A stretch of DNA of 32,000 nt from Methanothermobacter sp. (lineage in GTDB: Archaea; Methanobacteriota; Methanobacteria; Methanobacteriales; Methanothermobacteraceae): NCBI RefSeq assembly GCF_049720995.1, contig NZ_JBNASF010000004.1, positions 2,683-34,682 on the forward strand. The letters are read 5' to 3'. The translations under genes were made by a program, and so were the position numbers. Under the pieces are notes generated by a model. That model saw only the letters and a list, made by a program, of their open reading frames with translations. It was not told the origin of the DNA and searched no databases. Each line of letters starts with the position of its first letter. Within the stretch, counting starts at the first letter, position 1. Below, one piece after another: positions 1,166-29,583 of the stretch.

Positions 1166-1227
1166 GCACAGCCCGGGATATCCCCTGATCGGGCAGATGA
1201 CCGACCATTCAATTAAAGACCACAAAC

Positions 1228-1250
1228 TATTTATAACATTTATTTATTAT
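1228..1250 (+). promoter_or_regulatory. Candidate TATA region for the nurA-herA-mre11-rad50 operon (short or no leader)
   Basis: tatttataacatttatttatt lies in an AT-rich stretch 20-40 nt upstream of ATG 1269. There is no SD before that ATG, consistent with a leaderless or near-leaderless transcript. Confidence 0.35.
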
Positions 1251-1268
1251 TCAATATTAAACGTTTAC

Positions 1269-3856: not shown

Positions 3857-3865
3857 GGTGAACTG

Positions 3866-5122
3866 ATGTACAGATTCGCGCACCTGTCAGACTGCCACCT
3901 GGGGGCACAGAAACAGCCTGAACTCCGGGAACTGGAATTCCAGGCCTTCAGGATGGCCCTGGATGATGCGCTGGAGAATGATGTCGACTTCATGCTAATA
4001 GCCGGGGACCTGTTCCACTCCAACATCCCGAACATGGAGACCGTCAAGAGGGCCACACTGGAACTCAGGAGGGTCAGGGATGAGGGGGTCCCCATCTATG
4101 TCAACTATGGCAGCCACGACTACAGCCCATCAAACACCTCCATGATAGACATACTGGAAACCGCGGGGGTCATAGAGAAGGTTGTGCGCCCCATCCCCGG
4201 AAAGAAGCTGGGACTGGATTTCACGGTGGATGAGAAGACCGGGGCAAAGATCACGGGCCTGTCAGGGAGGTCAAGGGCACTGGAGGTTGACTACTTCAGG
4301 AACCTTGACAGGGAGGCCCTTGAGGCCGAGGACGGCTTCAGGATATTCCTGTTCCACAGCGCCATAACCCAGTTCAAACCCGTGGACCTTGCAGAGATGG
4401 ATTCCATCGACCTCAACCTCTTTCCCCGTGGCCTGGAATACTATGCAGGGGGCCACGTCCACAGGAGGGGCTGCTACATGGAGGAGGGCTACGGCCCAAT
4501 AGTATACCCTGGGGCACTCTTCGGTTCATACGCAGGTGACCTTGAGGAGAACGCCAGGGGAGAGGAGAGGGGGTACTACCTTGTTGAATTCAGGGAAAGG
4601 GCAAAGGCCCCACAGTTCAGGGCAATAAGGCCCGCTGAATTTGAATACATAGAATGTGATGTGACAGGTAAGAACTCCCAGGACGCATTCCTCCTAATAC
4701 GTAGAGAAATGGGGGAACACGATGTTGAGGGCAGGGTTGTGATGTTAAAGATCAGGGGTGAGCTCAGCTCCGGGAGGAGCTCGGACATAGATTCAGCATG
4801 GATAAGGAGGGAACTTGAATCCAGGGGTGCCCTTGTTGTCCAGATCAACAGGCACGGCCTTAGCACCCGTGAGATACAGAAGGTGAGGGTTGCCGAGAGC
4901 GACATCCCTGAACTTGAGAGGAGGATCTTCAGGGAGAAACTCGCAGGACTCGACATCAGAAACACCAATCTCGTGAAGAGGGGCGATTCCCTTGCGGTTG
5001 AGCTCCTCAGGAAACTTGAGGACGAGATCGCCCCCGGTGAAAATAAGGGCGAATATGAGAGGAGAATCATTGAGGAAGCAGAGGCTGTTATGGGAGTGAA
5101 TCCAGATGATGATAACCGATGA
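3866..5122 (+). CDS. mre11: Mre11 nuclease (calcineurin-like metallophosphoesterase)
   Basis: SD GGTGAGGTGA lies 4 nt before the ATG. Phosphoesterase motifs: [31 protein letters not shown]. Confidence 0.92.
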
Positions 5123-5187
5123 CTTCAGGATGGATGAGGGTGCTGGCTCCCTCCCCAGCTGGTTGAATCCAGATGATGATAACTGAT
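5097..5187. repeat. Direct duplication of the mre11 3' end (24 nt, 1 mismatch, period 67)
   Basis: tgaatccagatgatgataaccgat (5097-5120, the last mre11 codons through the start of the TGA stop at 5120-5122) recurs as tgaatccagatgatgataactgat (5164-5187) in the mre11-rad50 spacer. Confidence 0.9.
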
Positions 5188-5203
5188 CCCGTGGTGATGC
5201 TCT

Positions 5204-7717
5204 TTGATCATCAATTCACTTGAACTCAGGAACATAAGGAGCTATGAATCAGGAACCGTCGAGTTTGATGATGGAGTGACCCTCTTTGAGGGGGATATAG
5301 GTTCAGGTAAGACGACGCTTCTACTTGCAATAGAATTCGCACTCTTCGGGCTGGGTGACCAGAGGGGTGACAGTCTTCTGAGGGCCACATCAAATTCAGG
5401 TTCGGTCAAACTCACCTTCACGGTTGATGGTGCAGAGTACACGATCTACAGGGAACTTAAAAGGACCCCCTCAGGGGTGCAGCAGGGGGAACTCTACATC
5501 AGAACACCCACCGGCAGAAGGAAACTATCTGCAAAGGAACTGAAGGCCGAGGTACTTAACATCCTGGGTTACAGGGAACCCCTGAATCCAAGGGCCAGGA
5601 GCAGGATATACCGCTACGCGGTCTTCACCCCACAGGAGCAGATGAAGAGCATAATAGAAACCGGGAGCAGGGACCGGCTTGAAAGGCTAAGGAAGGCCTT
5701 CGACCTTGAGAAGTACAGCAGAGCAGCGGATAATGCCAAGTTGCTTTCCGGGAAAATCAGAAGATCCGCAGAAAGCCTTGAGAATAAATCCTACGACCTG
5801 GAGGATAAGAAAAGGGAACTCAGGAATATTATCAGTGAGAAGGGGAAAATGGAATCTGAGAGGAAAAAGCTTGACGCTGAAATCAGGGAAATCGAAGCAG
5901 AGATCAGCCAGCTGAAACTGGAACTTAAAGAACTCCAGAAGGAGGAAAACAGGATCCGGGCAGCGGAAGATAAGATAGAATCCCTTCAGAATGAAATTAA
6001 AACCCTGATTTCATCCTCAGATCGTCTCAGGGAGAGAAACAGGGAGATAGAGGAGAATTATAGGAAATCCATGGATGAACTTCAGAAGTGCCGGAGGATG
6101 AGGGAGGAGCTTCAGGAGGAACTTGATTCACTCAGAAAGAATATTGAAGAGATGAAGGATGAAAGAGAATCCCTCAGAGAGGACTACGAAAAGTTCAGAG
6201 ATGCTTCTACCAAGCTTGAAGGCCTCAGTAATCAACTTGAGATCCTCTCAGATATCAGAAACAATATGGAACTTGAAATCACCACAATTCAGGGTGAGAT
6301 TGGCGGCCTCAAATCAGAGATAGGGAAACTGAAGTCCCTTGAGGATCCACGGTGCACTGAGGATGAGGTGAAAGCTGAGATAGCTGAACTTGAGGGCGAG
6401 GTATCGAAGCTCCAGCGGGAGCTGGGCGCCATATCCGGGAAGATAGAGGACTACATGTCCATCAAAGATATTGGTGTCTGCCCCACATGTGACCAGGACG
6501 TGGACCCTGAGTACATAGACGATAAACTCAGAGATGCCCGGAAGAGGAAAAGGTCAGTTGAATCCAGCATAAATAAGCTTAAAGCGAAAATCGAAAATAA
6601 AAACAGACTCCTCGATCGTGTAAGAGAATACACAGGGTCCCGGGAAAAACTCAGTAAACTCACTGAGGACCTCAGGAAGAAGAAAGCCGAATGCGCTAAA
6701 AAGCAGGGGAACCTTGAGAACAATGAGAAGGAAATCAGGGAGATTAAATCAGATATAAACAAAAATGAAAGGATAATCAGTGACCTGAAGGATGTGGAAT
6801 CCCGTTTCAGAAGAATTGACGGGGATCTGGAAGCCCTCCGTGAGGGGGAGAGGGAATGTTCAGGCAGACTTTCGGAAACAGATTCAAGAATAAGGGAACT
6901 CCAGCGAAGAATCCCTGAACTCAACCCTGAAACCAGTGAGGAATACAGAAAGAACCTCCAGAAGATCAGAGAAAACAATGAAACCATCGCTGAAAGGGAA
7001 GCGGAAATAAAGGAAAACAGGGAGGCACTCAAAAACAGGGAGAAGGTGGAGGCCAGTATACAGGAGATCAGTGAAAGGCTTCGTAAACGTGAAGAATCAA
7101 AGGATGAGAAGAAACAGATGATAGGATCAGTTGAGGGGAAAATCGAGGAAAAACAGTATCAGATCGAAAGGCTTAAGGCTGAAATTGATGAAAAGAAGAA
7201 ACTCAAAAAACGGGCCAGTGAACTGAAGGACCATGTGACCTGGCTTGAATCCTACTTCATCCCTGCCCTCAGTGACATTGAGACCCATGTGATGGCACAG
7301 ATAAACCATGAGTTCAATGAGAGGTTCCAGAAATGGTTCAGGGTCCTGGTGGATGACCCGGATAAATCGGTGCGGGTTGACGAGGACTTCACACCCATCG
7401 TGGAGCAGGACGGCTACGAACAGAACCTTGAGTACCTCAGTGGTGGTGAGAGGACCAGCATAGCGCTTGCATACCGACTCGCCATCAGCATGGTGGTACA
7501 GACCCTGACCGATGTGAGGTCAGATATACTCATACTGGACGAACCAACAGATGGATTCAGCAAGGAGCAGCTCTACAAACTCAGGGACATCTTCGATGAA
7601 CTTGAGGCCAGACAGATAATCCTGGTATCCCATGAGGAGGAACTTGAAAACCTTGCAGACCACATATACCGGGTTGAAAAGTCCGATGGATTATCAGCCA
7701 TCCAGCAGGCGGGTTAA
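5204..7717 (+). CDS. rad50: Rad50 SMC-like ATPase
   Basis: TTG start at 5204; an in-frame TGA at 5195 excludes any earlier start, and GGTGA lies 6 nt upstream. N-terminus (M)[13 protein letters not shown]. Walker [10 protein letters not shown]. Long E/K-rich coiled coil with the CPTC zinc hook at 6479-6490. Signature LSGGERT, Walker [10 protein letters not shown]-loop LVSHEE. Confidence 0.95.
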
Positions 7718-13317: not shown

Positions 13318-14529
13318 ATGAGGGTTGCGGTGCTGGGACTTGGAGCTGAAGGTTTGAGGGCAGTTGAGTCACTGAAGAGAAGGGGTCACAGCGTATATGC
13401 AAGTGACATACGGCGTGAAATCCCTGTAAACCCTGAGGGGGTTGACCTTGACCTTGGCTTTCATGATACAGGGAAAATAGAGGCTGCAGATGCGGTTGTA
13501 ATCAGCCCATCAATGATAAAAACTGAACTCATGGAGCGGTTCAGTGATAAGCTCCTCTGCAGGGTCCTTGAGGGCCACAGAAAACCCAGAACCATCGCGG
13601 TCACAGGGACCAACGGCAAGACCACAACCGCCACAATGATAGCACATGTACTTGAATGTGCAGGTAAGAGGGTACTTCTTGGCGGGAATGCTGGCGGAGG
13701 ATTTGATGGCTACACAGAACTCCTTTTAAGGGCATCTGAGGAGGAATTTGACTACCTTGTGGTTGAGGTCTGCGATATGACCCTGGAATTCGCATCAGAG
13801 TGCTTTGACATTGACCTCGTTGTCCTCACAAACCTTGGCGAGGACCACATGGACTTCCACGGTTCAATGGAGAACTACAGAATGGCAATGGCAGAATTCC
13901 TGAGGGGAAGGGATGCTGTAATCGGCCCCGGGGATTCAGATGAAGAACTCAAAGAGGTCCCCTCCAGTCTCAGGACCTACAGTGAGTACACCGGGCCCCT
14001 GAGGGTTGAGGGCGGATTCAACAGACTGAACGCAGGGGCGGCATCAGAGGCCCTCAGGTATCTGGGTGTTCCAGAGGATATCATAGGGGATGGACTTGCC
14101 AGTTTCGAACCTGTGAGGGGTCGTATAAGGTCATTCATCATCAACGGGGCATCCGTTGTTGCTGGTAAAACCGACAACCCCCATGCCCTGAGGGCCGTAC
14201 TCTCAGAATCAGAATTCGATGTCATGTTCATCGGAACACCCCGGAGGTCAGAGAAGTGGCGCCTCCACATCCTTGATGAGGTCGCAGAGTCACCCCCGGA
14301 GGTCCTTGTGATATTCCCGGGGCTTGAGGACACGGTTGACATGGTAATGGAATACCTTGAGGGTCTTAAAATCCCATCAGAGGTCATAACAGTTGATGAA
14401 CCTGAGAAAATCCCCTGGATGGTCCTTGAGTTTTCCAGGAAATACAGGAGAATCTTCGTGGGTGGAAACGGGCAGGACAGGATAGCCACGGTCCAGGAAA
14501 AACTCGAGGAGATCTCCTCCTGTGAATGA
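13318..14529 (+). CDS. Mur-ligase-family ATP-dependent peptide ligase (MurD-like architecture); probable pseudomurein stem-peptide ligase
   Basis: GGTGA lies 4 nt before the ATG. The N-terminal Rossmann segment VAVLGLGAEGLRAV resembles MurD. P-loop VTGTNGKTTTATMIAHVL. Central-domain motifs LVVEVCD and NLGEDHMDFHG. 403 aa. Confidence 0.85.
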   Translation: MRVAVLGLGAEGLRAVESLKRRGHSVYASDIRREIPVNPEGVDLDLGFHDTGKIEAADAVVISPSMIKTELMERFSDKLLCRVLEGHRKPRTIAVTGTNGKTTTATMIAHVLECAGKRVLLGGNAGGGFDGYTELLLRASEEEFDYLVVEVCDMTLEFASECFDIDLVVLTNLGEDHMDFHGSMENYRMAMAEFLRGRDAVIGPGDSDEELKEVPSSLRTYSEYTGPLRVEGGFNRLNAGAASEALRYLGVPEDIIGDGLASFEPVRGRIRSFIINGASVVAGKTDNPHALRAVLSESEFDVMFIGTPRRSEKWRLHILDEVAESPPEVLVIFPGLEDTVDMVMEYLEGLKIPSEVITVDEPEKIPWMVLEFSRKYRRIFVGGNGQDRIATVQEKLEEISSCE

Positions 14530-14692: not shown

Positions 14693-17689
14693 ATGAAAGT
14701 GCTTGTGCTTGGAGCTGGAAACGCTGGCAGACCCGCCGCAAGATTGCTGAGACACCTTGGAAACAGTGTACTTGTAAATGACGTCAGGGAACTGGATGAA
14801 CTACCCCCAAAGGCCAGGAAGAGGATAGATGAGATGAAAGATGAGGGTGTGAGATTCAGGTTTGGGGGTCACAGGATTGAGGACATGCTATGGGCAGATG
14901 CCGTCTTCGTATCCCCCAGCATACCCCCTGATGCACCTGTACGTGATATGCTGGGGAGTGTGGAGAAGGATCTGATCCACATAACAACCTCAGACATAGG
15001 TAGGGTCCTCAACCAGCTCATAGGCATCCCCATGGTGGGAGTTGCAGGTACAGACGGGAAGACAACAACCACCAACATGATAGACCACATACTCTCATCA
15101 CGCCACAGGACGGTGTCATTCTCATCAATCCAGGACTCACTGGTAATTGAGGGACTTGTTGAACTCGTGGTGAATGGTGATGTGAACAGCAGGGACATGG
15201 CCGTATTTGAACTCCCACATGGAACCATAAGGATGGCTGATGGCCTTGAGATAGTGGCCGGGGTAGTGACAAACCTCACACCAGACCACATGGATGAGTT
15301 CAGGGACTACGATGAATACATTGAGAGGAACTTCTCAATAAAGAACCTCATAGCTCCAGGAGGTGTTCTGGTACTCTGTGGGGACGACCCGGTCATCGCG
15401 GGGCTCCTGGATGACCTTGAGGTTAAAAGTGTGGTTTATGGGCTGGGGAATGGAAGGACAGTTGAGTTCATGGATAGAACCTTCAGCGGCTCAGCAGAAC
15501 CACAGGTAAGCGCATCGGATATAGACCTCAGGGGTCTTGAGGGCTCAGAGTTCACCCTGAAGGTATCAGAGATACCAACGGCCCTCTGCAGCACCTGCGG
15601 ATCCCTGAACTGCGCGGAACATGAGGGGGTGGTCCATGCCGGTCCCCTCACAGAGAGGATAAAACTCAGGGTGCCGGGCCTCTTCAACGTGGAGAACGCC
15701 CTTGCAGCCATAACCGTTGCACTGGTACTCGGATTTGACATTAAGGACATCAAAAATGCAATAGAGGAATTCAGGGGTATAAAGGGTAGATTTGAATTCA
15801 TAGATCGGGTTGAGGGGGTCCCTGTTTACATGGACGCAGCACACAACCCTGAGAGTATGGAGAAACTTTTTGAGGGCATTGAATTCAAGGGGAGGCTGAT
15901 AATAAGCCTGGATAACCCCGACACCCTCACAGTGAGGGACAAGTACAGGATAGGTCAGATACTTGGTGAAAAAGCCGATGTATTGATTGTGAGCGGTAAA
16001 AATGAGACAACAGGTAAGATTGACATGGAAGCGGCCTCTGAGGTTGAAAGGGGCGCTGGCAGGGGTAAAACCATAAAGACCGATAGTGTATATGATAGCA
16101 TAAGGAGGGCACTTGAAATCGCCGAAAAGGGGGATACGGTACTCCACCTCGGCCCCGGGGTTGTCAACGCATATGACAATGTTAGGGATGATATTGAGAG
16201 GGCCATAGAGTCAATGAGGGACTTCACGGTTGTTCTTGGAGGCTGCGGGAATGTGGGAAGCCTCATGGCAAGGAACCTCCGGGCAAGGGGTTACCGGGTC
16301 GTTGTCTCGGATCTGAAGGAGAGTACACCCCTCGAGGATGTCTTCAGGGGTGAGGGAATAGAACTTGACCTGGGGGGTCACAGCATGGAGGTCCTCAGGG
16401 GCGCGTCCACCATAGCCATCACACCAGCCCTGGAGAATAACAGGAGGGTTCTTGACCTCATCAGGGACCTCAACGCTGATGTGATAGGTGTTGAGGACGT
16501 CCTGAACATGTGCCCCGTTGATAAACCTGTGGTGGGGGTCACAGGGACAAATGGAAAGACCACAACCACGGGTATCCTAAAATCCATAATGAGGGCTGCC
16601 GGAAAGACTGTGCCAGAGCACCACCTCAACATACAGGGCAACACTGAACTGGTACCGGCCCTCCAGGCAAGACTCCCTGGGGACGTGGCTGTGGTTGAGA
16701 TAGGGACATTCGGGAGGATGGGTGAGATAAGGCAATCAGCCCTTCTATCAGGGGTCTCAGTGGGCGTCATAACCAACATATCAAGGGACCACCTTTCAGG
16801 TGGAAGGAGGTTCTCTGATTACATTGAATGCAAGAGGGAGATCATTGATACAGCGGAGGTTCTGGTACTCAACGCCGATGACCCCATCGTCGCATCATTC
16901 GCAGAGGAACTGAGGGAGGAGAGAGCTGTGCTCTATGGCATCCAGAGCATGGAGTCATCCCAGGTCATGCCTGAGGGCAGGGAATGCCCCAGATGTGGCA
17001 ACCCCCTCAGATATACCCGCAGAACCATGGGGCACCTGGGGGATTACCTGTGTGTCTGCGGCTACCGGAGACCCCAGCCTGAGGTTATGGCCCTGGAGGC
17101 ATCAGCCACAGGATTCAAACTGGTAATTGGATCCGAAATGAGGGATGTGAAACTCAGGGCACCGGGGATCTTCAATGTCTACAATGCACTGGCAGCCGCT
17201 GCCGCCGCATGGTCCCTTGGCGTGAATATGGATGATATAGTAAGGGGAATTGAGTCATTTGGTGGTGTGAGGGGAAGGTTCCAGAGGCTGATGGACTCAC
17301 CACGGGTTATACTTGACTACGCCCACAACCCGGCCGGTGTGAGGGCTGTGATGCAGGAACTCAAAGGTACCGGCGGAAGGCTGATAGTCGTGAACACCGT
17401 GGCATCTGAGAGTGGAATAGATGGTGATCTGGAAATCGCATCACTCCTGAAGGATGCCGACACCGTTATACCGGCATCCTATGCTGCAAGGAGAGCCTCA
17501 GATATCCTGGGTAAGAGGGTGGTCCATATAGAATCCAGCAGAAAACGTGCAGGGTCCGGGACCCTTGGAGCTAACCGTGAACAGGTTGAGGAGGCTGTAA
17601 ATAAGGCCCTTGAAATTGCAGAACCAGATGACACTGTACTCATAATAGGTGAGGGGGGATTCAGATATGCAGAGGATTATATCAGTTAA
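14693..17689 (+). CDS. Tandem double Mur-ligase-family protein (two complete MurD-like modules in one frame); probable pseudomurein peptide ligases
   Basis: The track ORF starts at GTG 14672. ATG 14693 (MKVLVLGAGNAGRPAA) is preferred because a TATA-like ccttaaattaaaa at ~14650 would place the TSS after 14672. Module 1 has GxGxxG, AGTDGKTTTT and NLTPDHMDEF. Module 2 starts near ATG 16214 (MRDFTVVLGGCGNVGSLMA) and has TGTNGKTTTTG and NISRDHLSGG. No stop separates the modules. Cys clusters lie at 15587-15622 and 16985-17059. Confidence 0.85.
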   Translation: MKVLVLGAGNAGRPAARLLRHLGNSVLVNDVRELDELPPKARKRIDEMKDEGVRFRFGGHRIEDMLWADAVFVSPSIPPDAPVRDMLGSVEKDLIHITTSDIGRVLNQLIGIPMVGVAGTDGKTTTTNMIDHILSSRHRTVSFSSIQDSLVIEGLVELVVNGDVNSRDMAVFELPHGTIRMADGLEIVAGVVTNLTPDHMDEFRDYDEYIERNFSIKNLIAPGGVLVLCGDDPVIAGLLDDLEVKSVVYGLGNGRTVEFMDRTFSGSAEPQVSASDIDLRGLEGSEFTLKVSEIPTALCSTCGSLNCAEHEGVVHAGPLTERIKLRVPGLFNVENALAAITVALVLGFDIKDIKNAIEEFRGIKGRFEFIDRVEGVPVYMDAAHNPESMEKLFEGIEFKGRLIISLDNPDTLTVRDKYRIGQILGEKADVLIVSGKNETTGKIDMEAASEVERGAGRGKTIKTDSVYDSIRRALEIAEKGDTVLHLGPGVVNAYDNVRDDIERAIESMRDFTVVLGGCGNVGSLMARNLRARGYRVVVSDLKESTPLEDVFRGEGIELDLGGHSMEVLRGASTIAITPALENNRRVLDLIRDLNADVIGVEDVLNMCPVDKPVVGVTGTNGKTTTTGILKSIMRAAGKTVPEHHLNIQGNTELVPALQARLPGDVAVVEIGTFGRMGEIRQSALLSGVSVGVITNISRDHLSGGRRFSDYIECKREIIDTAEVLVLNADDPIVASFAEELREERAVLYGIQSMESSQVMPEGRECPRCGNPLRYTRRTMGHLGDYLCVCGYRRPQPEVMALEASATGFKLVIGSEMRDVKLRAPGIFNVYNALAAAAAAWSLGVNMDDIVRGIESFGGVRGRFQRLMDSPRVILDYAHNPAGVRAVMQELKGTGGRLIVVNTVASESGIDGDLEIASLLKDADTVIPASYAARRASDILGKRVVHIESSRKRAGSGTLGANREQVEEAVNKALEIAEPDDTVLIIGEGGFRYAEDYIS

Positions 17690-18836
17690 ACACATCATTT
17701 TGCTGGTGATTCTGGCGGCTATCATAACAGCATCGGGTGCATACATCGAGGGAAGCGTTGAACCCCAGCACCCGGGGGAGATAGCTGCCCTTGAGCCTGG
17801 AAGCACGGTACTGAAGGGTCAGGATGTTATCGATGAATCCCGGGTGAGGAGCGTCCCTCTCATACTCCACCCGGACTACCTGCTTGATGAATTCAACTAC
17901 ATGGACCCTGGAAACCTCCTCCAGGCGGTCCTCACAGGGGCTGTGCATGTCCCGATATCTGAGATGACCTCAGGGATAGACCCATCAGGGAGATCCACTG
18001 TGGATGGTCCGGGGGTGCTGAGGGTTTCAGGGGATAAACTGGTGGTGCAGGAGCCACCGGTCTTCCTCTGGGCCTACAAGACACCCTACACCTATGGTGT
18101 GAAGAGAGAGAATGGTATGGATATCATTGAGAACGGAAGGAAGGTTAGATTTGTCCCGGCAGATAGTATAGGTAACAGCACCGTCCCCCACAGGTACAGA
18201 TCCGTTAACAGGATAAAGAGCTGGTTCAGAAGGGCTGACGAGGGGGACGAGATAGTCCTGGACTACCAGCTATCCAACTTCAGCGACGGCAGACTCCCTG
18301 TTCCACCAGGGATGATAGAGAAACTCTTTGGTGGGGATGTTCTTGACTACATGGAGAACTACCCCTCAGGGGCGCCTGTAATGGTGTACACAGGGGGCCA
18401 CAGAAAGGTCCTGGTATCAACTGCAGTGAGCTACCTGGGCTCATACCCCCAGTACGATGATAACAGGAGGGCCTTCAATGCAAGGGCATTCGCTGAGGCA
18501 TGGAATGGCACTGTGATTCCACCTGGAAGTGAGGGTTCAGGTAAGGAGACAGTCAGGTTCACTGCATCAAGGGACCCTGAGGCCCCTGGCGGATACGCCT
18601 CCCACGGCTCATGTCCACCTGCAAGGGCACTCAGGGCCGTTGTAACTGATGCAGGGATGCCCCTCCCCAGGGGCATGACATGGGAGTTCCATGCGGTTCT
18701 ATTCGGCTTCAACCCGGCGACCGGGATAAAGGTCAGAAATACCGGAAGGTACCCTGTACTCATTGAGATGTGGACGACGGGTTCAGGTGCAGGTACAACC
18801 ATATACGCCAGAATCTACAGGCTTGAACCGGCATAG
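17667..18836 (+). CDS. N-terminally membrane-anchored extracytoplasmic protein with a VanW-like C-terminal region (tentative)
   Basis: ATG 17667 (MQRIISVKHIILLVILAAIITASGAY, a signal anchor) overlaps the upstream stop by 23 nt. The C-terminus GSCPPARALRAVVTDAGMPL...EFHAV...IKVRNTGRYPVLIEMWTTGSGAGTTIYARIY resembles the VanW pattern (GG.C...LY.A...AG...H...F.N.T.YP..I......L...IY). This is from memory and not searched. Confidence 0.65.
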   Translation: MQRIISVKHIILLVILAAIITASGAYIEGSVEPQHPGEIAALEPGSTVLKGQDVIDESRVRSVPLILHPDYLLDEFNYMDPGNLLQAVLTGAVHVPISEMTSGIDPSGRSTVDGPGVLRVSGDKLVVQEPPVFLWAYKTPYTYGVKRENGMDIIENGRKVRFVPADSIGNSTVPHRYRSVNRIKSWFRRADEGDEIVLDYQLSNFSDGRLPVPPGMIEKLFGGDVLDYMENYPSGAPVMVYTGGHRKVLVSTAVSYLGSYPQYDDNRRAFNARAFAEAWNGTVIPPGSEGSGKETVRFTASRDPEAPGGYASHGSCPPARALRAVVTDAGMPLPRGMTWEFHAVLFGFNPATGIKVRNTGRYPVLIEMWTTGSGAGTTIYARIYRLEPA

Positions 18837-19484
18837 GTGGTGGGATTGGTCTCAGCGGTTGTTACAGCGGCAGGGAGGGGTAGCCGTATGTGCAGGGACA
18901 TGCTGGAACTCGGCCTTGAACCCATCCACAAATTACTGCTCCCCCTCAACTCAGTTACTGTAATAGAAAAGACGGTGGATTCCGTGCTCAGGGCAGGTGT
19001 GGATGAGTGCATCGTGGTCACAGGCCACCATGCAGGGGAGGTGGAGGCGGCGATATCAGGTATGGATGTGGAGATTGTGAGGAACGATCCTGCTGAGGTT
19101 CCACTATCAGCATCACTCCTAAATGGTGTTCTCGCTGCTTCGGGTGAAATCATACTCTGCGTGGCAGGTGACCAGCCGGCGGTATCCCCCGGGACCATGG
19201 GGAGAATCAGTGAACATGCGGATCATGAGACGGTTTCGGTACTTGCAAGGGGAAGCAGTGGCTGGCTTGAGAGTGCTGAGGGCCTCGGGATGCCCCTTGC
19301 AGCGAGTTCAGAGGTCCTTAAAAAATATCTCCCCCTGGGTGATGGCAACATAAATCCGCTGCTGCGTTTGATGGTGGATGATGGCATCAGACTGTACGGT
19401 GTTGAGGCATCAGACCCCATTGAACTTGTAAATATAAACCACTACAGTGATTACCTCAGAATAAGGGGTTATCCTGGGGTTTAA
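18837..19484 (+). CDS. MobA-like/NTP_transf_3-type nucleotidyltransferase
   Basis: GTG start directly after the upstream TAG. The N-terminus VVTAAGRGSRM is the G-x-G-x-R NTP-binding loop of the GT-A-fold nucleotidyltransferases (MobA/MocA/IspD type). About 215 aa. Last gene of the ligase operon. Confidence 0.75.
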   Translation: MVGLVSAVVTAAGRGSRMCRDMLELGLEPIHKLLLPLNSVTVIEKTVDSVLRAGVDECIVVTGHHAGEVEAAISGMDVEIVRNDPAEVPLSASLLNGVLAASGEIILCVAGDQPAVSPGTMGRISEHADHETVSVLARGSSGWLESAEGLGMPLAASSEVLKKYLPLGDGNINPLLRLMVDDGIRLYGVEASDPIELVNINHYSDYLRIRGYPGV

Positions 19485-19816: not shown

Positions 19817-20506
19817 CTACTGGCTTATGGCCTCAAGGGCATTGACAACACACCCTATGTTCTCGCCGTTGAGTCCCACGATGAGTTCGTCGTCCCTTAC
19901 ACCGGCGTACTGCCTTGAACCGCTGCACCCCATGGTTATATTTGGCCTCTTCCTCATGTAGGGCCCTGCAACTGCGTCTGCACAGAGTGACTGTATACCT
20001 GAGAAGTCAGCCTCCACGCGGCCACCGAGGGTGTATACGAGGGCCTGTGAGATCTTCATTGCCTGGGCAGGGTTGCAGATGATCACTATGACGTCAGGGT
20101 CAAAGGTTGCATCCTCAAGGGGTGCGTACACTGCGGCGTAGAACCTGAGGTCAAGGGAGGGTATCCCATCAAAGGTTCTCTTGGCGGATGCAAAGCTTGC
20201 AAAGCGACCAAGGTTGTAGTAGAACTCCCCTGTTTTGACCTTCTCTGGCGCCTCATCTATTCCAAGGGCATCTGCACCACCCTTGCATGCCTGGGCCTCC
20301 GCCGTTGCATAGAATGATTTCCCTGCAGCAGCCATCTGGACCATTTCACAGTGCCTTGCAGGCTTCTCTATTTTTTCAACACCCTCCGGAAGGTCATCCT
20401 CCCTTAGAACGAGTTTTATCGCCACCGGGGACTTCTCAAGTCCAAGGAGGGTTTTCAGCTTTTCTGATATCTCATCATATCCATTCACAGCGCATACATC
20501 AACCAC
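19817..20506 (-). CDS. DUF169 (COG2043)-family protein
   Basis: 229 aa. The pattern SPVAIKLV...ARHCEMVQMAAAGKSFYATAEAQACKGGADALGI...MGCSGSRQY matches my recollection of DUF169. Confidence 0.7.
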   Translation of the reverse strand: MVDVCAVNGYDEISEKLKTLLGLEKSPVAIKLVLREDDLPEGVEKIEKPARHCEMVQMAAAGKSFYATAEAQACKGGADALGIDEAPEKVKTGEFYYNLGRFASFASAKRTFDGIPSLDLRFYAAVYAPLEDATFDPDVIVIICNPAQAMKISQALVYTLGGRVEADFSGIQSLCADAVAGPYMRKRPNITMGCSGSRQYAGVRDDELIVGLNGENIGCVVNALEAISQ

Positions 20507-21599: not shown

Positions 21600-22145
21600 T
21601 CAGACATTTATAACTTCTGGTAGAGTCCCTGTTCTCCTGTATTCAACAAGAACCTGTCTGAAGATCTTCCTTGCAAGTGATGGTGTTATGTCGGGGGATC
21701 CCTCAACATAGATACCAACATGGTTGGGGCTTCTGCCATTGGCGTCCATCCAGGTGTATGTGCGCTCCGCCATATCTGTGTATTCGCTCCTTGTAAGGGT
21801 GACGGTATCCATAAATCCATAGGGGTCCTCAGGTCCACCGTATTCACTCACATGAATCTTTCCTGTCTCATTGGCTTCCAGCATCACAATCCCCCTTGCA
21901 AAGATGTACAGTAGCTGGGGGCCTGTGAAGTTGAATCCCCTGTACGTCACTGTACCGTTACCTGAGTCCATCTCTGCAAGTTCAAGAACAGCCTGAAGGT
22001 TAAGCTGGTATCCATCTGAGGTTTTTTCAACCACTGCATCTTTTGTCTCTACAGGCATGCTCTGGGGTATGAACTGTATAACAACAGCTACGGCAAGAAG
22101 GAAAAATGTCATGGCAGTTAAAATAGGTATATTCCTTTCATTCAT
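21600..22145 (-). CDS. Membrane-anchored pseudomurein-binding-repeat (PMBR)-like protein
   Basis: GGGGGTG SD 5 nt before the ATG. N-terminal TM IPILTAMTFFLLAVAVVIQFI. The C-terminal LTRSEYTDMAERTYTWMDANGRSPNHVGI...ITPSLARKIFRQVLVEYRRTGTLPEVINV matches the PMBR pattern known from the N-termini of PeiW/PeiP (Y.dMa.r...f...nGr.PnyV). Confidence 0.65.
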   Translation of the reverse strand: MNERNIPILTAMTFFLLAVAVVIQFIPQSMPVETKDAVVEKTSDGYQLNLQAVLELAEMDSGNGTVTYRGFNFTGPQLLYIFARGIVMLEANETGKIHVSEYGGPEDPYGFMDTVTLTRSEYTDMAERTYTWMDANGRSPNHVGIYVEGSPDITPSLARKIFRQVLVEYRRTGTLPEVINV

Positions 22146-22228
22146 ATAAACACCCCCTTTGCACCAGCGAAATTCAATTATACTTTTTAAAAAAATGAAT
22201 ATTGTTTTTAAAGAAGAATATTGAGAGG

Positions 22229-22792
22229 TTATCCGCTGTACCTCTTACCTGTCTTTTCAACAATGGCATTTGATATGAGGGGTATGGTTCTTTCGGCTTC
22301 TGTAACGGTAATATATGTGGTTGAACCACTGTATATGCCGTAAATTATGACCTCATCGTTTTCGTAGATACCGTCAAATGCACCCTCTACCATAATATCA
22401 TTGTCATAGGATCCTATGGGGCATACCCTTATGCTGTCTGAACTTGACTGAACAACATAACCCTTTGTTTTCACGGGTGTTCCCTTTGCTATGGAACCGC
22501 TGTAGAGTTCAGATATGCTTACTTCCTTAGCCTTTTCTTTTATCTCTGCGCTGGTCATGTAAGTGCCTGTAACTTCGCCTGTGTAATCTGTTGATTCGTC
22601 AGGTGTCCCCATGGAGGTTATAAAGATAAGAAGGACGATTCCTATACAGCATGCGCCTCCTATGAGCCCTATTTTGGACTTTGATCCCAGTTTACTCCAC
22701 CAGCTGCTTTTGATACTTTCAAATTCTTTTCCGCATTTTGCGCAGAATTTGGAGTCTTTCTTGTTTTCTGTTCCACAATCAGGACATTTCAA
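22229..22792 (-). CDS. Zinc-ribbon / single-TM / extracellular-domain protein
   Basis: TTG start with GGAGGTAA 5 nt upstream. MKCPDCGTEN..CAKCG ribbon, TM IGLIGGACCIGIVLLIFI, then a ~120-aa beta-rich ectodomain. 12 nt downstream of the DUF2085 gene. Confidence 0.7.
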   Translation of the reverse strand: MKCPDCGTENKKDSKFCAKCGKEFESIKSSWWSKLGSKSKIGLIGGACCIGIVLLIFITSMGTPDESTDYTGEVTGTYMTSAEIKEKAKEVSISELYSGSIAKGTPVKTKGYVVQSSSDSIRVCPIGSYDNDIMVEGAFDGIYENDEVIIYGIYSGSTTYITVTEAERTIPLISNAIVEKTGKRYSG

Positions 22793-22804
22793 AACAATTA
22801 CCTC

Positions 22805-23134
22805 CTATAGAATTGTCCATATGAAGTACTTAATTGCCTTTGTGATTATTCCAAGACCTACACCTGCAGGAACACCTGTTGAGAACCTCAGAACATTGTT
22901 GCTTTCCCTGTAACCGAGTAGCTGTGTGAATCCATCAAGGAATGTTGGAACTATCATAATGAATGCTGAGATTATCAGAGTGATGTCATATTCAATCACT
23001 GTGAGGTAAGCGTATATGAAGTATGCGAATGCACCAGTGTAGATTCCAGTACACCTTGAACATACAGGAAAGTAGTGACCTCTTACTGAAAATGTTCTCT
23101 CTGGTTTCCTGTGGCACAAGTACCTTAGCTTCAT
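22805..23134 (-). CDS. DUF2085-family membrane protein
   Basis: The N-terminus LCHRKPERTFSVRGHYFPVCSRCTGIYTGAF is the characteristic DUF2085 motif. It has 3-4 TM helices and 109 aa. Confidence 0.75.
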   Translation of the reverse strand: MKLRYLCHRKPERTFSVRGHYFPVCSRCTGIYTGAFAYFIYAYLTVIEYDITLIISAFIMIVPTFLDGFTQLLGYRESNNVLRFSTGVPAGVGLGIITKAIKYFIWTIL

Positions 23135-23556
23135 ATGGACAGCACCATCTCTACTAATTATTCAGTAAGCATGGTATTGTATTTAAATGTTTACTTTTTT
23201 CATTTACATTAATAAATTTTTTAATGATAGTAGGACAATTTTCCATCATGGATTCTCTGCCACCATCCATTAACTTCATTATACCTCATGACATATGATG
23301 GCGCAATCATGATAAGCCACGCATCACATGAAGGGTATGGGCAATTTTGGTGTAATGTAATGGGTAATATCCATCTTTTCAATGACACCCTGCAGGATAT
23401 CCAGTGATTCAGAATAAAAAAGGAGCCATTTCTGAATGTCAATCTGTTTAGAGGAAAATATATATAGAATAATCAGAATAAGATAACACCATATGTAATG
23501 AATTGTTTTCCCTGAACAGATCTTTGTGATAGGAAAACTTAAGGGAAGTGATAATA

Positions 23557-24150
23557 ATGGATACAACACTTATATCCACAATATACTCCATTGAACCGGT
23601 GATGTTCTGCATAACACAGTTCTCACCAAAGAAGGTTGTGCTGCTCAAGGAAGATAAGGCGCCAAGGGAGAAGGAACAGGTCGAACAGGTCCTCAGAGAC
23701 ACTCTGGGTAACTTCGTTGAGATAACGACCTTTGAGACAAGCCTTTATGATGTTGTCACCATTGCAAGGGATATGGTTGAGATCATAGATGAGGAAAGGG
23801 CCAATGGAAGGCGTGTCGTGGTTAACATAAGCGGGGGCAGAAAAACCCAGGCACTCGGCGCACTCTTCGGCTGCTACGCCAGGAACCATGATGTTCAGCG
23901 CATAGTGTACGTGACCGAGGAGGACAGCGAACTCATAGACCTCCCCATACTGAGCTTCGGAATATCCAAGACAAAAAAACAGGTCCTTGAGGAACTCAAG
24001 GCCGGTGAAACATCTGTTAAGAACCTTGCAGTCAAGATAGGTATAAGCAGGGGGATGACCTACAACCATATAAGAGAACTCCGTGACATGGGGTTCATAG
24101 ACCGTGAAAAACTTGAAATAACCTCTGCAGGCGAGCTTGCAGTCCTTTAA
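23557..24150 (+). CDS. Csa3-like CARF domain plus winged-HTH transcriptional regulator (CRISPR-locus-related DNA-binding protein type)
   Basis: ATG 23557 with GGGAAGTGA 5 nt upstream. The N-terminal Rossmann-like domain has the CARF-type loop [20 protein letters not shown]-terminal wHTH: [29 protein letters not shown]. About 197 aa, the typical Csa3 size. Confidence 0.7.
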
Positions 24151-25125: not shown

Positions 25126-28100
25126 TTATCTACCCCTCCAGTAACCGAATCCAACAAGCAAAACCAGGCTCACAACGCCCAGGAGCGCGTAAAGCGGCAC
25201 CTGACTCTCTGATGATCCGCTCCTGGTTGAGGCTGAAACCTCGTAGGCTTTACCTGATTCAGCCCCAGTTCCTGTTTCAGTTGCGGGCGTCTGGCCCTGA
25301 CTTTCACCCATGGAACCTGATGATTCACTGTATGATGCGCCTGATGAACCTGAGGGTCTCTGTCCTGTTCTCCCGGCGCTCTCACCGTTGCTGTCTGAAT
25401 CTGAATGGACTGGATTCTCTGAACCTCCTCCCGGTATGCTGACTGATGCGCCTGTTGCAGCTGCAAGGGCTGCGGCAAACCTTTTGAGGGACGCCTGGTT
25501 GATGGAGGAGACCTTAACAACCCAGTTATTGAAGACAATGTTTGCGCAGGTATGGTGGCAGCACACAACCCCGTACTGCCCTGCAAGTTCAATGTAACGG
25601 TTTGCAAGGTCCCTCAGAACAGCCTTATCTGCATTACAGATGTTCCGCCTTGCAGCCTCAAGGACCCATGCGATCATTGACTGTGTTGCAACAGCCTCAT
25701 AGTCATTTGATACCCGGAAACGGTCACTAATAAGGTTTCTGGCAACCTGGTCCCACAGTTCATTGCTCACAGCGCCAGTTGTAACTGCAATCCCAAAGAG
25801 GTTCCTGTACCTTGAGGCGTATTCCAGCCAGCCGCTGGGTGAGCTGAGGAGTGAGTCCATGTAGCGCGGGTTGAGCAGCTGGGATCTCACCTCAACTTCG
25901 ATCTCCTCTGCAACGGTCCTCACGGTAACCGTGTTCCTGTTCCGTATATCCACCAGTGCGGTATCAGGGTTGCCGCCGAGGTGGCGTGATGCAAGGACCA
26001 TTCCACCGAACCAGTCATAGTAGTCGTCTGTGTCAGTGAGCCTCCAGGTGCTGTCCAGGTTCTGCGTAACAAGGTCCACCTTACCCAGGAGGTACTGGAA
26101 GGTGCCCCTGTTCTGCTGTATATCCACGCCCCCCGGGGTTGACCTCCAGGCATAGGAGACCCTTGAGAGGTAGACATCTGCAAGTTCAGCGCTGCTATTC
26201 CACCTTGAGGTTGCCGGTGTCATATCTGATACGCCTGTACCCTCAAGTACAAGGCCCCTGAGTCCGAATACACGGTCCAGTGAGCCGCATTCACTGTAGT
26301 GCCTCTTAACATAGTTTTCGGTGTCATCTGCCTCTGCAGCCATCCTAACAGCGGCGTTCATGAGGTCTATCCAGAGCTGGTTACCGGTAACGGCAGTTAC
26401 AAATACGTCGATGCGTGGTCTTGGTATCTCAACGCCGTTCACCGTGATCCTGAGTTCTGATGCATCCATCAGGACAGGTTCAGGTTTGACGTCGCCGTTG
26501 GTGTTCCACTGGGGCTTGACCCCAAGGAGGTACATGAACTCTGCGATGGCAATCCCATCGGTCCTCAGAAGCTCGGTACCCCACATCACCATTCCGATGA
26601 GTTCAGGGAATCTGCCGTGCTTCATGTAGTACTCTGCAAGGAGGGTGTCTGTGATTCTCTTAGCGGTCTCCCAGGCGGCCCTTGTTGGCATCTTCCTGGG
26701 GTTGGTGGCGTAGAAGTTGGCTCCGGTTGGAAGCACATCACACCATGCAGGGTCACCTGCAAGTCCTGGCCTCACAAAGCCGCCTCCAAGGGCTGAAAGC
26801 AGGCTCTGCCATTCGGTGTTTCCACGTATCTTCCTGATCGTCTCATTGATGAATTCAAGGTCCGCACTGTTTATACCTGCAGGGACAGTCCCGTTTATTA
26901 TGTTCCTGATCCATGTCCGTGCAAGGTCCTTAACCGAGGCTATATCGTCACTGTATCTCAGGGGGTCCTTGAGCATTTCACTGTAGGCTGGCCTTGAGGG
27001 GTGAAGGGTTTTTCTGATGTTCTCCAGGAACTCGGACCTTGATGATGCTATGGTGAGCACCTCTTCCACCAGCTCATCACCCTCAAGCACCCTTCCAAGG
27101 CTGTGGAGTCCCAGGGGGATTATGTCTGATTCTATCTCATGGAGACTGAGATGAAGCCTCTCAAGGGCATCTGTGAAGTTGCCTGTCATGTTGAATCCCA
27201 TCTCTGAAGCCTTCGATCTGATCTGGGACTCAAGGGCCGGGAGTATCTGGCTGTTACCAACCTTGAGGGCGTTCTCGTACTGGTGGATGAGGTCATGTAT
27301 CTCAATGAGTTCACCGTAGAGGCCGCTCTCAACCATGGCAGGGGTCATGTGGTCTATGATGAGGGCGCAGCTGCGGTCCTTTGCCACCATACCCTCCCCC
27401 GGGTTGGAGACTATGTAGGGGTAGATGTTTGGTATTCCTGTGAGCTGGAATGGCCAGTCATCCTCCATGAGCCCTATCATTCTTCCTGGGAGGAACTCCA
27501 GTGTCCCGTGGGTTCCAAGGTGTATCATTGCATTTGCCCTGAAGACGTTTTCCATCCACCTGTAGAAGGCTATGTACTGGTGGTGCGGTGGCAGGTAGGG
27601 GTTGTGGTAGTCTGTGACCTCGTCCCAGCCACGTGCTGGCTGGACCGTCACGAAGATGTTCCCCAGCATTATACCAGGTATCACGATGCTGCCGTTCACC
27701 GTCATTATGTTGCCTGGTGCGGCCCCCCATTTTGATGTGACCTCTGACCTGAGTTTTTCGGGGAGTTTGCTGAACCATTCCAGGTATTTCTGCACATCAA
27801 GAAGCTGCCCGCTGGCCTGCAGTTCCGCCTTGTGCTCCATCACATACCTTTCAAGGAGTGGCTGGGCCCACGTACCCTTATTACCGAACTCTGAGATGAT
27901 CCTGTAGAGTTCATCCACGCCGGGTATCCTTTCGACCCTGTAGCCACTTTCATTGAGCTTAACAAGGAGATCGTGGAGGCTCCTGAAGACGTCAAGATAT
28001 GATGCCGTAAACCCATCCTTACCTGGCGGGTAGCTGTAGAGTATCACCGCGATTTTCTTCTCTGAATTGTCAAGTTCCCTGAGTTTAGCCCATCCATCTG

Positions 28101-29583
28101 CGATTTTAACTATCTTCTCCACTCCAGGCTGCAGTGTGATCTCATTCCCAGATGCATCGGTGCAGGATACAACGATGGGTGAGAAGACACCCTCGAATCC
28201 GGGTATCGTGAACTGCCAGGTCCACTCGTACTGGGCGCCCATGGGGTTTGTGAGGCTTGAGTTGCTGTAGAGCTGCACCCCCTTGATCACGGGGATGTTG
28301 ATCCTCTCAAACTCTGCAAGCGCTCCGCCTGATGGCAGGTTGGCGTAGTTCAGTGACCAGGAATAGAGGGATATGACTGCGTCTATGCTGCGGTTCAGGG
28401 GCCCCTTACCGTTAACTCCCAGTGTGAGCTCCTCAAGGAGTGAACTCACAGCAGGGTTTGTGGCGCCCTGGTAGAGGTTGAAGATGGCCCTTCCATGCCT
28501 CTCCGCCTCCCTGATTATGGCGTCCACTGTGGGTGATGACCCATAGCTTACAACCACCAGGAAGGGTCCTCTTATGTTTTTGTTTGCTGTGTACCATTCC
28601 TCGAACTGTCTGTAGACATCCGCCCTCTGGTTCTCTGCCCAGGATGAGAAGTTCTGGTCCATCCACCTGAGGCTGTCATATGGTGGAATGAATCCAGGGT
28701 TGCCCTCTATCCAGGCCTTTATTCTGGATCTTTCTGCAACCACACTCATCACCCCACAGTCAGGGTGGTAGAGTCCCCAGTCTGGGGCTGCCATTACCGG
28801 TCCCTGATTGTTCTCAACCGGGTTGAAGGTTGTCTCGCCGAGGAGATACTGTATGTACTTTATCATGTTCTCAAGGTTCTCCCTGGTTGCCCCTCCTGAT
28901 GCAAGGGCGTAGTAACTTGCAACGTAGGTGTTCTCCACTGTATCCGGTGTGTCATTTCCAGGTGTTCCGCCCAGGAGGTTCAGTCCGGTTCCGCCGTAGG
29001 GGTCGCTGTCTGTGTCTGTTGGGTAACCGAAGCCCGCCGCTATCATGTTCCTCTGGTTCGCGGGACTCCTCAGTAGGTAGGGGTACCAGGAGTCACCCCA
29101 GCCTGTCCCGGGCATTGCCATGTCCAGGTAGGCGAAGTTCACGTACTCCATTATCCAGTCGTTTGCCGCTGATGACGGATCCCACATGTCATGGTAGATT
29201 ATCCTCCTATTATCCATTGACTTCAGTAGGCGTCCCTTCTCAGGGACCGAGCTTATGATGGCTATATCCGGCATGAATGTGTGGTTCAGGGTGCAGCTGG
29301 AGTTTATGGTGTATGTCACCGGCCGGTAGGTGTGGTAGCTTATCCTCACCTCAACAGGGAATCTGTCACTGAATGTAACCCTGTAGGATCCTTCTGCTGC
29401 TGTTAATGTTTCATTGAGAACCGAACCATTGTATATCACGGTGATTGTGGCATTCTTCACTGGCAGCGCGTCCTGTAGTGTGGTGTACCCTCCTGATGTT
29501 TCATTGTAGATCTCCTTTATGTGTCCTGAAACCTCCGCTGCACTGGCTGTGCCTGTCAGTGCAACTGCGAGTATCACTGCCAT
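25126..29583 (-). CDS. CobN/Mg-chelatase-H-family protein, exported and C-terminally membrane-anchored
   Basis: 1485-aa ORF. N-terminal signal (…AVILAVALTGTASA/AEV) followed by a ~100-aa beta-sandwich-like domain. The long CobN-type body includes HGTLEFLPGR, PNIYPYIVSNPGEG, IIDHMTP, GGFVRPGLAGDP, LPTGANFY, GMVMWGTELLRTDG and DYYDWFGGM. The C-terminus is a Ser/Gly-rich linker, then TM LYALLGVVSLVLLVGFGYW and RGR. See the finding on an alternative ATT start at 29604. Confidence 0.9.
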   Translation of the reverse strand: MAVILAVALTGTASAAEVSGHIKEIYNETSGGYTTLQDALPVKNATITVIYNGSVLNETLTAAEGSYRVTFSDRFPVEVRISYHTYRPVTYTINSSCTLNHTFMPDIAIISSVPEKGRLLKSMDNRRIIYHDMWDPSSAANDWIMEYVNFAYLDMAMPGTGWGDSWYPYLLRSPANQRNMIAAGFGYPTDTDSDPYGGTGLNLLGGTPGNDTPDTVENTYVASYYALASGGATRENLENMIKYIQYLLGETTFNPVENNQGPVMAAPDWGLYHPDCGVMSVVAERSRIKAWIEGNPGFIPPYDSLRWMDQNFSSWAENQRADVYRQFEEWYTANKNIRGPFLVVVSYGSSPTVDAIIREAERHGRAIFNLYQGATNPAVSSLLEELTLGVNGKGPLNRSIDAVISLYSWSLNYANLPSGGALAEFERINIPVIKGVQLYSNSSLTNPMGAQYEWTWQFTIPGFEGVFSPIVVSCTDASGNEITLQPGVEKIVKIADGWAKLRELDNSEKKIAVILYSYPPGKDGFTASYLDVFRSLHDLLVKLNESGYRVERIPGVDELYRIISEFGNKGTWAQPLLERYVMEHKAELQASGQLLDVQKYLEWFSKLPEKLRSEVTSKWGAAPGNIMTVNGSIVIPGIMLGNIFVTVQPARGWDEVTDYHNPYLPPHHQYIAFYRWMENVFRANAMIHLGTHGTLEFLPGRMIGLMEDDWPFQLTGIPNIYPYIVSNPGEGMVAKDRSCALIIDHMTPAMVESGLYGELIEIHDLIHQYENALKVGNSQILPALESQIRSKASEMGFNMTGNFTDALERLHLSLHEIESDIIPLGLHSLGRVLEGDELVEEVLTIASSRSEFLENIRKTLHPSRPAYSEMLKDPLRYSDDIASVKDLARTWIRNIINGTVPAGINSADLEFINETIRKIRGNTEWQSLLSALGGGFVRPGLAGDPAWCDVLPTGANFYATNPRKMPTRAAWETAKRITDTLLAEYYMKHGRFPELIGMVMWGTELLRTDGIAIAEFMYLLGVKPQWNTNGDVKPEPVLMDASELRITVNGVEIPRPRIDVFVTAVTGNQLWIDLMNAAVRMAAEADDTENYVKRHYSECGSLDRVFGLRGLVLEGTGVSDMTPATSRWNSSAELADVYLSRVSYAWRSTPGGVDIQQNRGTFQYLLGKVDLVTQNLDSTWRLTDTDDYYDWFGGMVLASRHLGGNPDTALVDIRNRNTVTVRTVAEEIEVEVRSQLLNPRYMDSLLSSPSGWLEYASRYRNLFGIAVTTGAVSNELWDQVARNLISDRFRVSNDYEAVATQSMIAWVLEAARRNICNADKAVLRDLANRYIELAGQYGVVCCHHTCANIVFNNWVVKVSSINQASLKRFAAALAAATGASVSIPGGGSENPVHSDSDSNGESAGRTGQRPSGSSGASYSESSGSMGESQGQTPATETGTGAESGKAYEVSASTRSGSSESQVPLYALLGVVSLVLLVGFGYWRGR

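Follow-up and report, generated by a model that had tools for sequence, protein, structure and literature searches.

The window analysed here, a stretch of 32,000 nucleotides (nt) from a Methanothermobacter sp. (NZ_JBNASF010000004.1, positions 2,683-34,682, forward strand), contains an intact open reading frame (ORF) for PmurA, a protein of 389 amino acids (aa). Its product matches the NCBIfam equivalog NF053640.1, 'Mfer335 family protein PmurA', with 535.8 bits against a cut-off of 400 (E = 5.3e-161), the match spanning residues 13-388 and profile positions 1-378 of 378. The same family has been described as OG0001147 by Lupo et al. 2025 and as Mfer335 by Subedi et al. 2021; the window protein is a member and shows no difference from it. 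An NCBIfam scan gave the gene order pMurD2, pMurD1-pMurC, PmurA, PmurB, so that PmurA occupies the same operon place as its relatives, between the pMur ligases and PmurB. This context is the pseudomurein Gene Cluster 1 of Subedi et al. 2021 (PMC10117817). The coordinates of the genes and of the features within PmurA are collected in Table 1.

The longest ORF in the PmurA frame opens at a GTG codon at position 17649. A Shine-Dalgarno-like GGTGAGGGGGG can be read within the 3' end of the ligase gene, 8 nt before the ATG at 17667, and this ATG is therefore the preferred start. The TAA stop codon of the ligase ORF lies at 17687-17689, giving the 23 nt overlap on which the initial annotation had remarked, and PmurA is translationally coupled to pMurD1-pMurC. 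The PmurB ORF in turn begins directly past the PmurA stop codon. Within the long ligase ORF, NCBIfam assigns residues 8-514 to pMurD1 and residues 520-1001 to pMurC, and Pfam recognises two sets of Mur ligase domains. Clusters annotated as containing fused or overlapping ligases were mentioned by Subedi et al. 2021 (PMC10117817), and the pMurD1 and pMurC halves are contiguous upstream of PmurA in other genomes too. The single ORF of the window may be a genuine fusion or may reflect loss of a stop codon.

Table 1. Features of the PmurA locus; positions are those of the window.
Feature	Position	Strand	Evidence
Shine-Dalgarno-like GGTGAGGGGGG	17648..17658	+	read from sequence
PmurA (Mfer335 family) coding sequence, 389 aa + stop; first 23 nt shared with the end of the ligase ORF	17667..18836	+	NF053640.1
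N-terminal membrane anchor, residues 7-30, after R3; K8 also basic	17685..17756	+	Kyte-Doolittle, AlphaFold helix
N-terminal ectodomain, residues 31-256, beta-rich	17757..18434	+	AlphaFold, predicted local distance difference test (pLDDT) mostly >90
VanW-like C-terminal domain, residues 257-389	18435..18833	+	hhalign, shuffles, secondary-structure overlay, weak Pfam matches
Putative active-site motif A311-x-H313-G314-x-C316-P317-x-x-R320-x-x-R323	18597..18635	+	invariant 87/87
pMurD2 pseudomurein peptide ligase	13318..14529	+	NCBIfam NF053647.1, 552.7 bits vs cut-off 550
Fused pMurD1-pMurC ligase ORF, 1005 aa	14672..17689	+	NCBIfam and Pfam
PmurB (Mfer334 family, MobA-like nucleotidyltransferase)	18837..19484	+	NCBIfam NF053639.1, 266.6 bits vs cut-off 260

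Earlier work had established both the gene family and its connection with pseudomurein; what seems to be new is the assignment to a fold, the outward topology shared throughout the family and the transpeptidase hypothesis, all described below. Subedi et al. 2021 found relatives of Mfer335 to be confined to pseudomurein methanogens, noted an N-terminal membrane-insertion segment, and proposed a role in phosphoryl transfer (PMC10117817). In Lupo et al. 2025 the family is one of the uncharacterised orthogroups, credited with 0 transmembrane (TM) segments and lacking a signal peptide (PMC11915815). A 2026 paper took PMurA to be a glutamate-phosphorylating enzyme; breakdown of ATP was seen, while glutamyl-phosphate was undetected (PMC12996149). 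The PMurA of that paper is encoded between PMurD2 and PMurB in M. ruminantium and therefore belongs to the same family. In the literature collection that was searched, no paper ties VanW to pseudomurein.

A HMMER search with the family profile against 1.84 billion (1.84e9) representative proteins returned 72 at E ≤ 1e-3, about a dozen being full-length clusters and the remainder mostly fragments. Seventy are family members or fragments of them. The other two, both non-archaeal repeat proteins, look spurious: P0143 (1598 aa) matches profile positions 122-173 in seven repeats (E = 8.8e-8), and the NHL-like P0157 (380 aa) matches positions 87-133 in three repeats (E = 9.7e-4). Both are probably compositional or beta-hairpin repeat artefacts. 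Among genomes, taken as one per species, 197 loci with a relative were found, and the locus counts given here come from the best 80 of the 197. All 80 derive from Methanobacteriales-type genomes, in keeping with the restriction to pseudomurein organisms for which the initial annotation had proposed a check. One metagenome-assembled genome labelled Methanomicrobiales (JBNGDB010000006.1) has the arrangement pMurD2-PmurA-PmurB-DUF169; the cause is a mistake either in the label or in the binning of the contig.

In 77 of the 80 loci the next gene after PmurA, on the same strand, is PmurB, and at least 72 have a Mur-type ligase upstream. Six loci were counted as being without a ligase: in five of them a same-strand ligase match starts only a little beyond the distance cut-off, and at the sixth (L075) no neighbour was matched at all. 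A divergent homologue, P0101, is 31% identical and is carried on contigs with a guanine-plus-cytosine (GC) content of 62% (L093-L095; gene at 5001-6179 of L093). These contigs are probably from Methanopyrus, an assignment resting on the GC content only and not on confirmed taxonomy. P0101 keeps the motif A-H-G-x-C-P-P-A-R-A-L-R as well as R-x-x-N, D-G-R and the Asn.

The N-terminus of the window PmurA contains the basic residues R3 and K8 and then a hydrophobic run of about 20 residues (Kyte-Doolittle 19-mer score 2.5); AlphaFold models a helix at residues 7-30. No second hydrophobic segment was found in the protein by Kyte-Doolittle analysis. A basic and hydrophobic N-terminus is present in 55 of 87 family members; the remaining members start at an internal Met just past the anchor ('MYPxG...') and look like truncated gene calls. 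The anchor was also sought at the DNA level, in the 80 genome loci and three divergent ones, and all 83 encode, in frame upstream of the ectodomain, basic residues and then a hydrophobic 19-mer (score ≥ 1.8). The anchor is therefore universal in the family, and by the positive-inside rule PmurA is predicted to be a type II membrane-anchored protein, N-terminus in and C-terminus out, with a body of about 360 residues in the extracytoplasmic space. The signal anchor proposed in the initial annotation thus extends to the whole family. The outward topology and the fold assignment given below contradict the published '0 TM' description and the hypotheses of a cytoplasmic kinase or nucleoside triphosphatase (NTPase), and an ATP-dependent cytoplasmic kinase is hard to reconcile with this orientation.

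Two further features agree with an outside location. A single Cys is present in 56 of the 87 members, and members from Methanobrevibacter and Methanosphaera possess C-terminal tails of 10-30 residues rich in N-x-S/T, which are probably N-glycosylated linkers. The tails are seen in P0033, P0060, P0066 and P0078-P0086 (alignment A1 columns 416-445); the window protein has none.

In the initial annotation the C-terminus of PmurA was said to follow the VanW consensus, and this was examined by comparing alignments. When the family members were scanned individually against Pfam, 33 of the 87 matched VanW (PF04294) weakly, the best with E = 8.8e-5, and every other family matched at most three of the 87. 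For profile-profile comparison, a VanW consensus, used only as a query, recovered 68 plasmid records annotated VanW. Twelve VanW genes were taken from these, originating from Bacillota, Actinomycetota, Deinococcota and a Bartonella, and including VanW-B from the E. faecium vanB operon; a Pfam check of ten of the 12 gave VanW matches with E of 1e-32 to 1e-52. The addition of 120 further Pfam-annotated proteins gave a larger profile of 132 domains. Aligned by hhalign with the 12 VanW domains, the PmurA family scored a probability of 84.1% (E = 7.5e-6, 105 columns). With the 132 domains the probability was 89.7-93.3% (E = 1.8e-6 to 2.6e-7, 126-129 columns), residues 257-389, which run to the C-terminus, being placed on VanW profile positions 7-156 of 166. 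Across 200 column-shuffled VanW alignments the score was 12.4 ± 2.2 with a maximum of 22.2 and probabilities of at most 5.2%; the real score of 43-45 lies about 14 standard deviations above them. Three comparisons with unrelated real alignments, serving as negative controls, gave at most 0.2% and scores of 10-13. At the level of sequence profiles, residues 257-389 (133 residues) are a remote VanW homologue, divergent and not a member of the Pfam family. The likeness reported in the initial annotation thus held as remote homology and did not reach the Pfam threshold.

Two of the VanW proteins, both actinobacterial and encoded on Streptomyces and Tsukamurella plasmids (L006:250-1950 and L007:253-1956), match Pfam strongly although a Ser (GGGVS and GGGIS) stands where the catalytic Cys would be; these may be Ser-nucleophile or inactive VanW variants. 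An identity with PG_binding_4 (PF12229) was considered for the N-terminal ectodomain and rejected, the hhalign probability against the N-terminal regions of eight VanW proteins being 0.1%. Neither Foldseek nor hhalign against the PG_binding_4 region detected a relative for residues 31-256.

The secondary structure of two independent models points in the same direction as the profiles. AlphaFold modelled PmurA with a pLDDT of 92.3 and a predicted template modelling score (pTM) of 0.84, and VanW-B with a pLDDT of 90.5 and a pTM of 0.88. Along the sequence-derived alignment, the three-state DSSP strings of the two models are identical in 98 of 128 positions (77%); shifting the register lowers the agreement to 16-52%. 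The common order of elements is a helix with R/K-x-x-N, two strands, a hairpin, a helix started by Cys, and three or four strands with a conserved Asn. C316 is the first residue of the helix at 316-328 in PmurA, and in VanW-B the helix at 127-139 begins next to C128.

Residues A311, H313, G314, C316, P317, R320, R323, P334, G336 and N358, among others, are invariant in all 87 family members, as are W186, D207, R209 and Y228 in the N-terminal domain. C316 aligns with the catalytic Cys of VanW (98% conserved) and G314 with the last Gly of the VanW G-G-G-x-C motif (100%), while H313, three residues before C316, occupies the middle Gly. The first two Gly and the Gln of the VanW GGGxCQ are not retained; PmurA has S/T/A, H and P there. 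Other correspondences are N271 with the VanW Asn (100% conserved), P286 with Pro (98%), S291 with Ser (99%), G347 with Gly (93%), and N358 with the Asn of the L-D-L-x-F-x-N motif (99%). The initial annotation had picked out an invariant-looking Cys and His. The Cys is indeed invariant and is aligned to that of VanW. H342 (in 'EFHAV') was rejected as a catalytic residue, being variable across the family, and it is H313 that is invariant instead; no invariant His is found downstream of C316 in the 87 members. As judged from these alignments, PmurA retains the VanW nucleophile and scaffold and not the published Cys-His-Asp triad (PMC11348318).

VanW domains were described as poorly understood in the initial annotation, a statement overtaken in 2024 when VanW was identified as an L,D-transpeptidase (LDT) catalytic domain (PMC11348318). 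They are Cys-dependent transpeptidases that cleave the bond between residues 3 and 4 of the murein stem, free residue 4 and transfer the acyl group to an amine on a second stem (PMC11348318, PMC12729407). Cross-linking of pseudomurein is described as the loss of a terminal residue together with the creation of a Glu-Lys linkage between stems, for which the enzyme is given as unidentified (PMC2812497, PMC10117817). The literature reports no transpeptidase homologue in these archaea and favours transglutaminase-like proteins encoded outside the clusters (PMC10117817, PMC11915815, PMC2812497).

Our leading proposal, held tentatively and at slightly less than even confidence, is that PmurA is an extracytoplasmic Cys-dependent enzyme that acts on pseudomurein stem peptides, most likely as a transpeptidase. 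Transpeptidation is ranked first because a role in cross-linking suits a VanW-like Cys protein that faces outward and is co-translated with the ligases of the stem peptide. There is a parallel in bacteria, where the transpeptidase gene ftsI lies inside the mur/dcw cluster. The more specific suggestion that the missing transpeptidase of pseudomurein is PmurA, derived in archaea from the bacterial VanW L,D-transpeptidase fold, its active site rebuilt with H-G-x-C replacing the Cys-His-Asp triad to suit all-L stems with isopeptide links, is a shade more speculative. The candidate cross-linking or remodelling enzyme of the initial annotation is thus partly supported and remains a credible one, with its activity predicted from homology and context.

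In the proposed mechanism, C316, placed at a helix N-terminus as in VanW, would attack the Lys-Ala bond of an exported pseudomurein stem peptide, releasing the terminal Ala and forming a C316 thioester. The amino group of a Glu in a neighbouring stem would then resolve the thioester to give the Lys-Glu cross-link, a reaction that would have no ATP requirement outside the cell. With the VanW His missing, H313 at position -3 may serve as the general base; free carboxylates of the stem may be bound by R320 and R323, which lie on the same face of the helix. The N-terminal ectodomain would hold the sacculus or a lipid-linked precursor.

Several observations weigh against this proposal. The Pfam VanW model gives the window PmurA 12.5 bits against a gathering threshold of 27 (E = 0.1), over residues 268-297 only, and the HMMER search with the family profile returned no VanW protein at E ≤ 1e-3 among the 1.84e9 representatives. 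Against the VanW-B/G clade alone, hhalign gives a probability of 44% (E = 2.3e-4, 128 columns). The VanW catalytic His (100% conserved, about 23 residues past the Cys) aligns with W339, a Trp in 52% of members, and at G353, the position aligned with the VanW Asp (99%, in L-D-L-x-F-x-N), 53% of members have Gly, the window protein included, and most of the others Asp. The missing VanW His and Asp and the sub-threshold Pfam score are among the reasons that our confidence is no higher. The P0101 gene has a TP_methylase gene on one side and, on the other, genes for a MoaA-like radical-SAM protein and then alanyl-tRNA synthetase; since P0101 adjoins neither PmurB nor a Mur ligase, the operon linkage is not universal. 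Exported transglutaminase-like proteins have been preferred as cross-linkers (PMC11915815), and ATP breakdown has been reported for recombinant PMurA (PMC12996149). Moreover, when seven foreign VanW proteins were assayed in C. difficile, four showed no LDT activity, so that a VanW fold is no guarantee of transpeptidation. Foldseek found no match for the PmurA model in PDB or BFVD at E ≤ 1e-3, a null that is uninformative because the genuine VanW-B model likewise finds none in PDB. Profile searches of PDB sequences also found no VanW, and VanW has been described as a fold without a solved relative (PMC11348318).

PmurA might instead be an extracytoplasmic pseudomurein hydrolase using the same Cys and VanW-like fold. 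It would then either cut off the terminal Ala, as an L,L-carboxypeptidase, or open cross-links as an endopeptidase so that the cell can grow or divide. The evidence of topology and VanW homology fits a hydrolase equally well. The C. difficile VanW enzymes have carboxypeptidase activity that is partly kept in Cys-to-Ala mutants (PMC11348318), and loss of the VanW His and Asp could mean a changed reaction. Hydrolysis and transfer are not separated by sequence alone; a single-copy gene coupled to precursor-synthesis genes in 77 of 80 genomes nevertheless looks synthetic rather than lytic, and we regard this alternative as unlikely.

Fold and topology apply alike to a transpeptidase that tethers S-layer or other surface proteins to pseudomurein, in the manner of the YkuD-type LDTs that tether Lpp and outer-membrane proteins to murein; LDT-type Cys-transpeptidases are known to attach proteins to bacterial walls (PMC12729407). 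No candidate substrate protein is encoded beside the gene in the 80 loci, however, and a gene that all pseudomurein organisms carry in one copy is more in line with a core wall function, making protein tethering improbable. Equally improbable is a non-catalytic PmurA, an anchored scaffold, sensor or pseudomurein binder on a degenerate VanW fold. Such a role would account for the lack of conservation of the VanW His and Asp, and some bacterial VanW proteins carry Ser for Cys, as do L006 and L007, or show no detectable LDT activity. Against it, C316, H313, G314, P317, R320 and R323 are invariant in the 87 members and also kept in the 31%-identical lineage, and this invariance is what would be expected at an active site rather than in a degenerate domain.

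The published hypothesis that PmurA is a cytoplasmic first-step glutamate kinase or NTPase making glutamyl-gamma-phosphate for PmurB is very improbable: its gene does sit between cytoplasmic ligases and the nucleotidyltransferase PmurB, a phosphoryl-transfer role was suggested by Subedi et al. (PMC10117817), recombinant M. ruminantium PMurA turned ATP into ADP and AMP (PMC12996149), and 'SSGKE' at residues 290-294 is slightly P-loop-like, yet no kinase or NTPase family was matched in Pfam or NCBIfam, glutamyl-phosphate was not detected (PMC12996149), and the basic-then-hydrophobic anchor, encoded at all 83 loci, implies a body outside the cell, where ATP is lacking. A P-loop reading of 'GSEGSGKET' was ruled out, since the Walker A motif GxxxxGK[ST] occurs in 0 of the 87 members and 'SSGKE' aligns with the strand region of VanW containing PGETFSF, with no helix after it in the model.

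Returning to the transpeptidase proposal, the closest known systems include the VanW L,D-transpeptidases (PF04294), such as Ldt4 and Ldt5 of C. difficile (Bollinger et al. PNAS 2024). Like PmurA, these are anchored in the membrane by the N-terminus, expose a large region outside the cell and carry the catalytic domain at the C-terminus. The likeness extends to the order of secondary-structure elements, the nucleophile Cys at a helix N-terminus after a Gly (G-x-C), and the R/K-x-x-N, I-x-P, S, G and N positions. Cleavage between residues 3 and 4 with transfer to an amine, as performed on murein, is also the chemistry that pseudomurein needs. The differences are that PmurA falls below the Pfam threshold, is without the VanW His and Asp, has (S/T/A)HGxCP in place of GGGxCQ, and has an N-terminal ectodomain that is not PG_binding_4. 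Its substrate would be all-L with gamma and epsilon isopeptide bonds, which implies an L,L reaction in place of an L,D one. Finally, PmurA is archaeal, whereas the PNAS 2024 survey of VanW spans bacterial phyla only.

YkuD (PF03734) enzymes also work through a Cys acyl-enzyme mechanism, and their (S/T)-x-G-C-phi-R (PMC12729407) can be set beside the (S/T/A)-H-G-x-C-P-x-x-R of PmurA. The VanW and YkuD folds are not superimposable, however (PMC11348318), and PmurA does not contain the YkuD motif H-G-(S/T)-x10-(S/T)-x-G-C-phi-R, its spacing being H-G-x-C as opposed to x-G-C. A comparison with YkuD had been suggested in the initial annotation; YkuD is not among the 25 Pfam families most matched by members (E ≤ 10), beyond which the 26th family matches at most one member. 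The resemblance between the two motifs is probably coincidence or convergence.

The transglutaminase-like exported proteins of Methanobacteriales (OG0000044; the C-terminal domain of PeiW/PeiP) resemble PmurA in being extracytoplasmic and Cys-based and in the Glu-Lys linkage proposed for them (PMC10117817, PMC11915815, PMC2812497). They are multi-copy, lie outside both pseudomurein clusters (PMC11915815), and many are adhesin-like (PMC10117817). PmurA, in contrast, is encoded within the cluster, with one copy per genome locus, and Pfam matches no transglutaminase family to it.

PmurA is of interest as what appears to be a divergent member of a proven transpeptidase fold, outward-facing and located in a conserved pseudomurein operon. 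The analysis corrects the working model of a cytoplasmic glutamate kinase, the expected product of which was not found in the 2026 test (PMC12996149). If the transpeptidase proposal is true, the shared ancestry of murein and pseudomurein would reach past the cytoplasmic Mur ligases and MraY to extracellular cross-linking, the final assembly step. PmurA would then also be a methanogen-specific Cys-enzyme drug target in Methanobacteriales for rumen methane mitigation.

A DUF169 (COG2043) gene lies just downstream of PmurB on the opposite strand (window 19817-20506, -), a position kept in most of the 80 loci. Further downstream the GC content falls to 40% (22001-24000), against about 50% for the whole window. 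Positions 25126-29583 (-) encode a CobN/BchH-type chelatase large subunit of 1485 aa that scores far under every equivalog cut-off. At the other end of the window, 1125-7717 (+) is occupied by a DNA double-strand-break repair operon, the scores of which are all well below the equivalog cut-offs. It consists of an ORF with no family match (1125-2333) and genes for HerA-like (2330-3856), Mre11-like (3866-5122) and Rad50-like (5204-7717) proteins.

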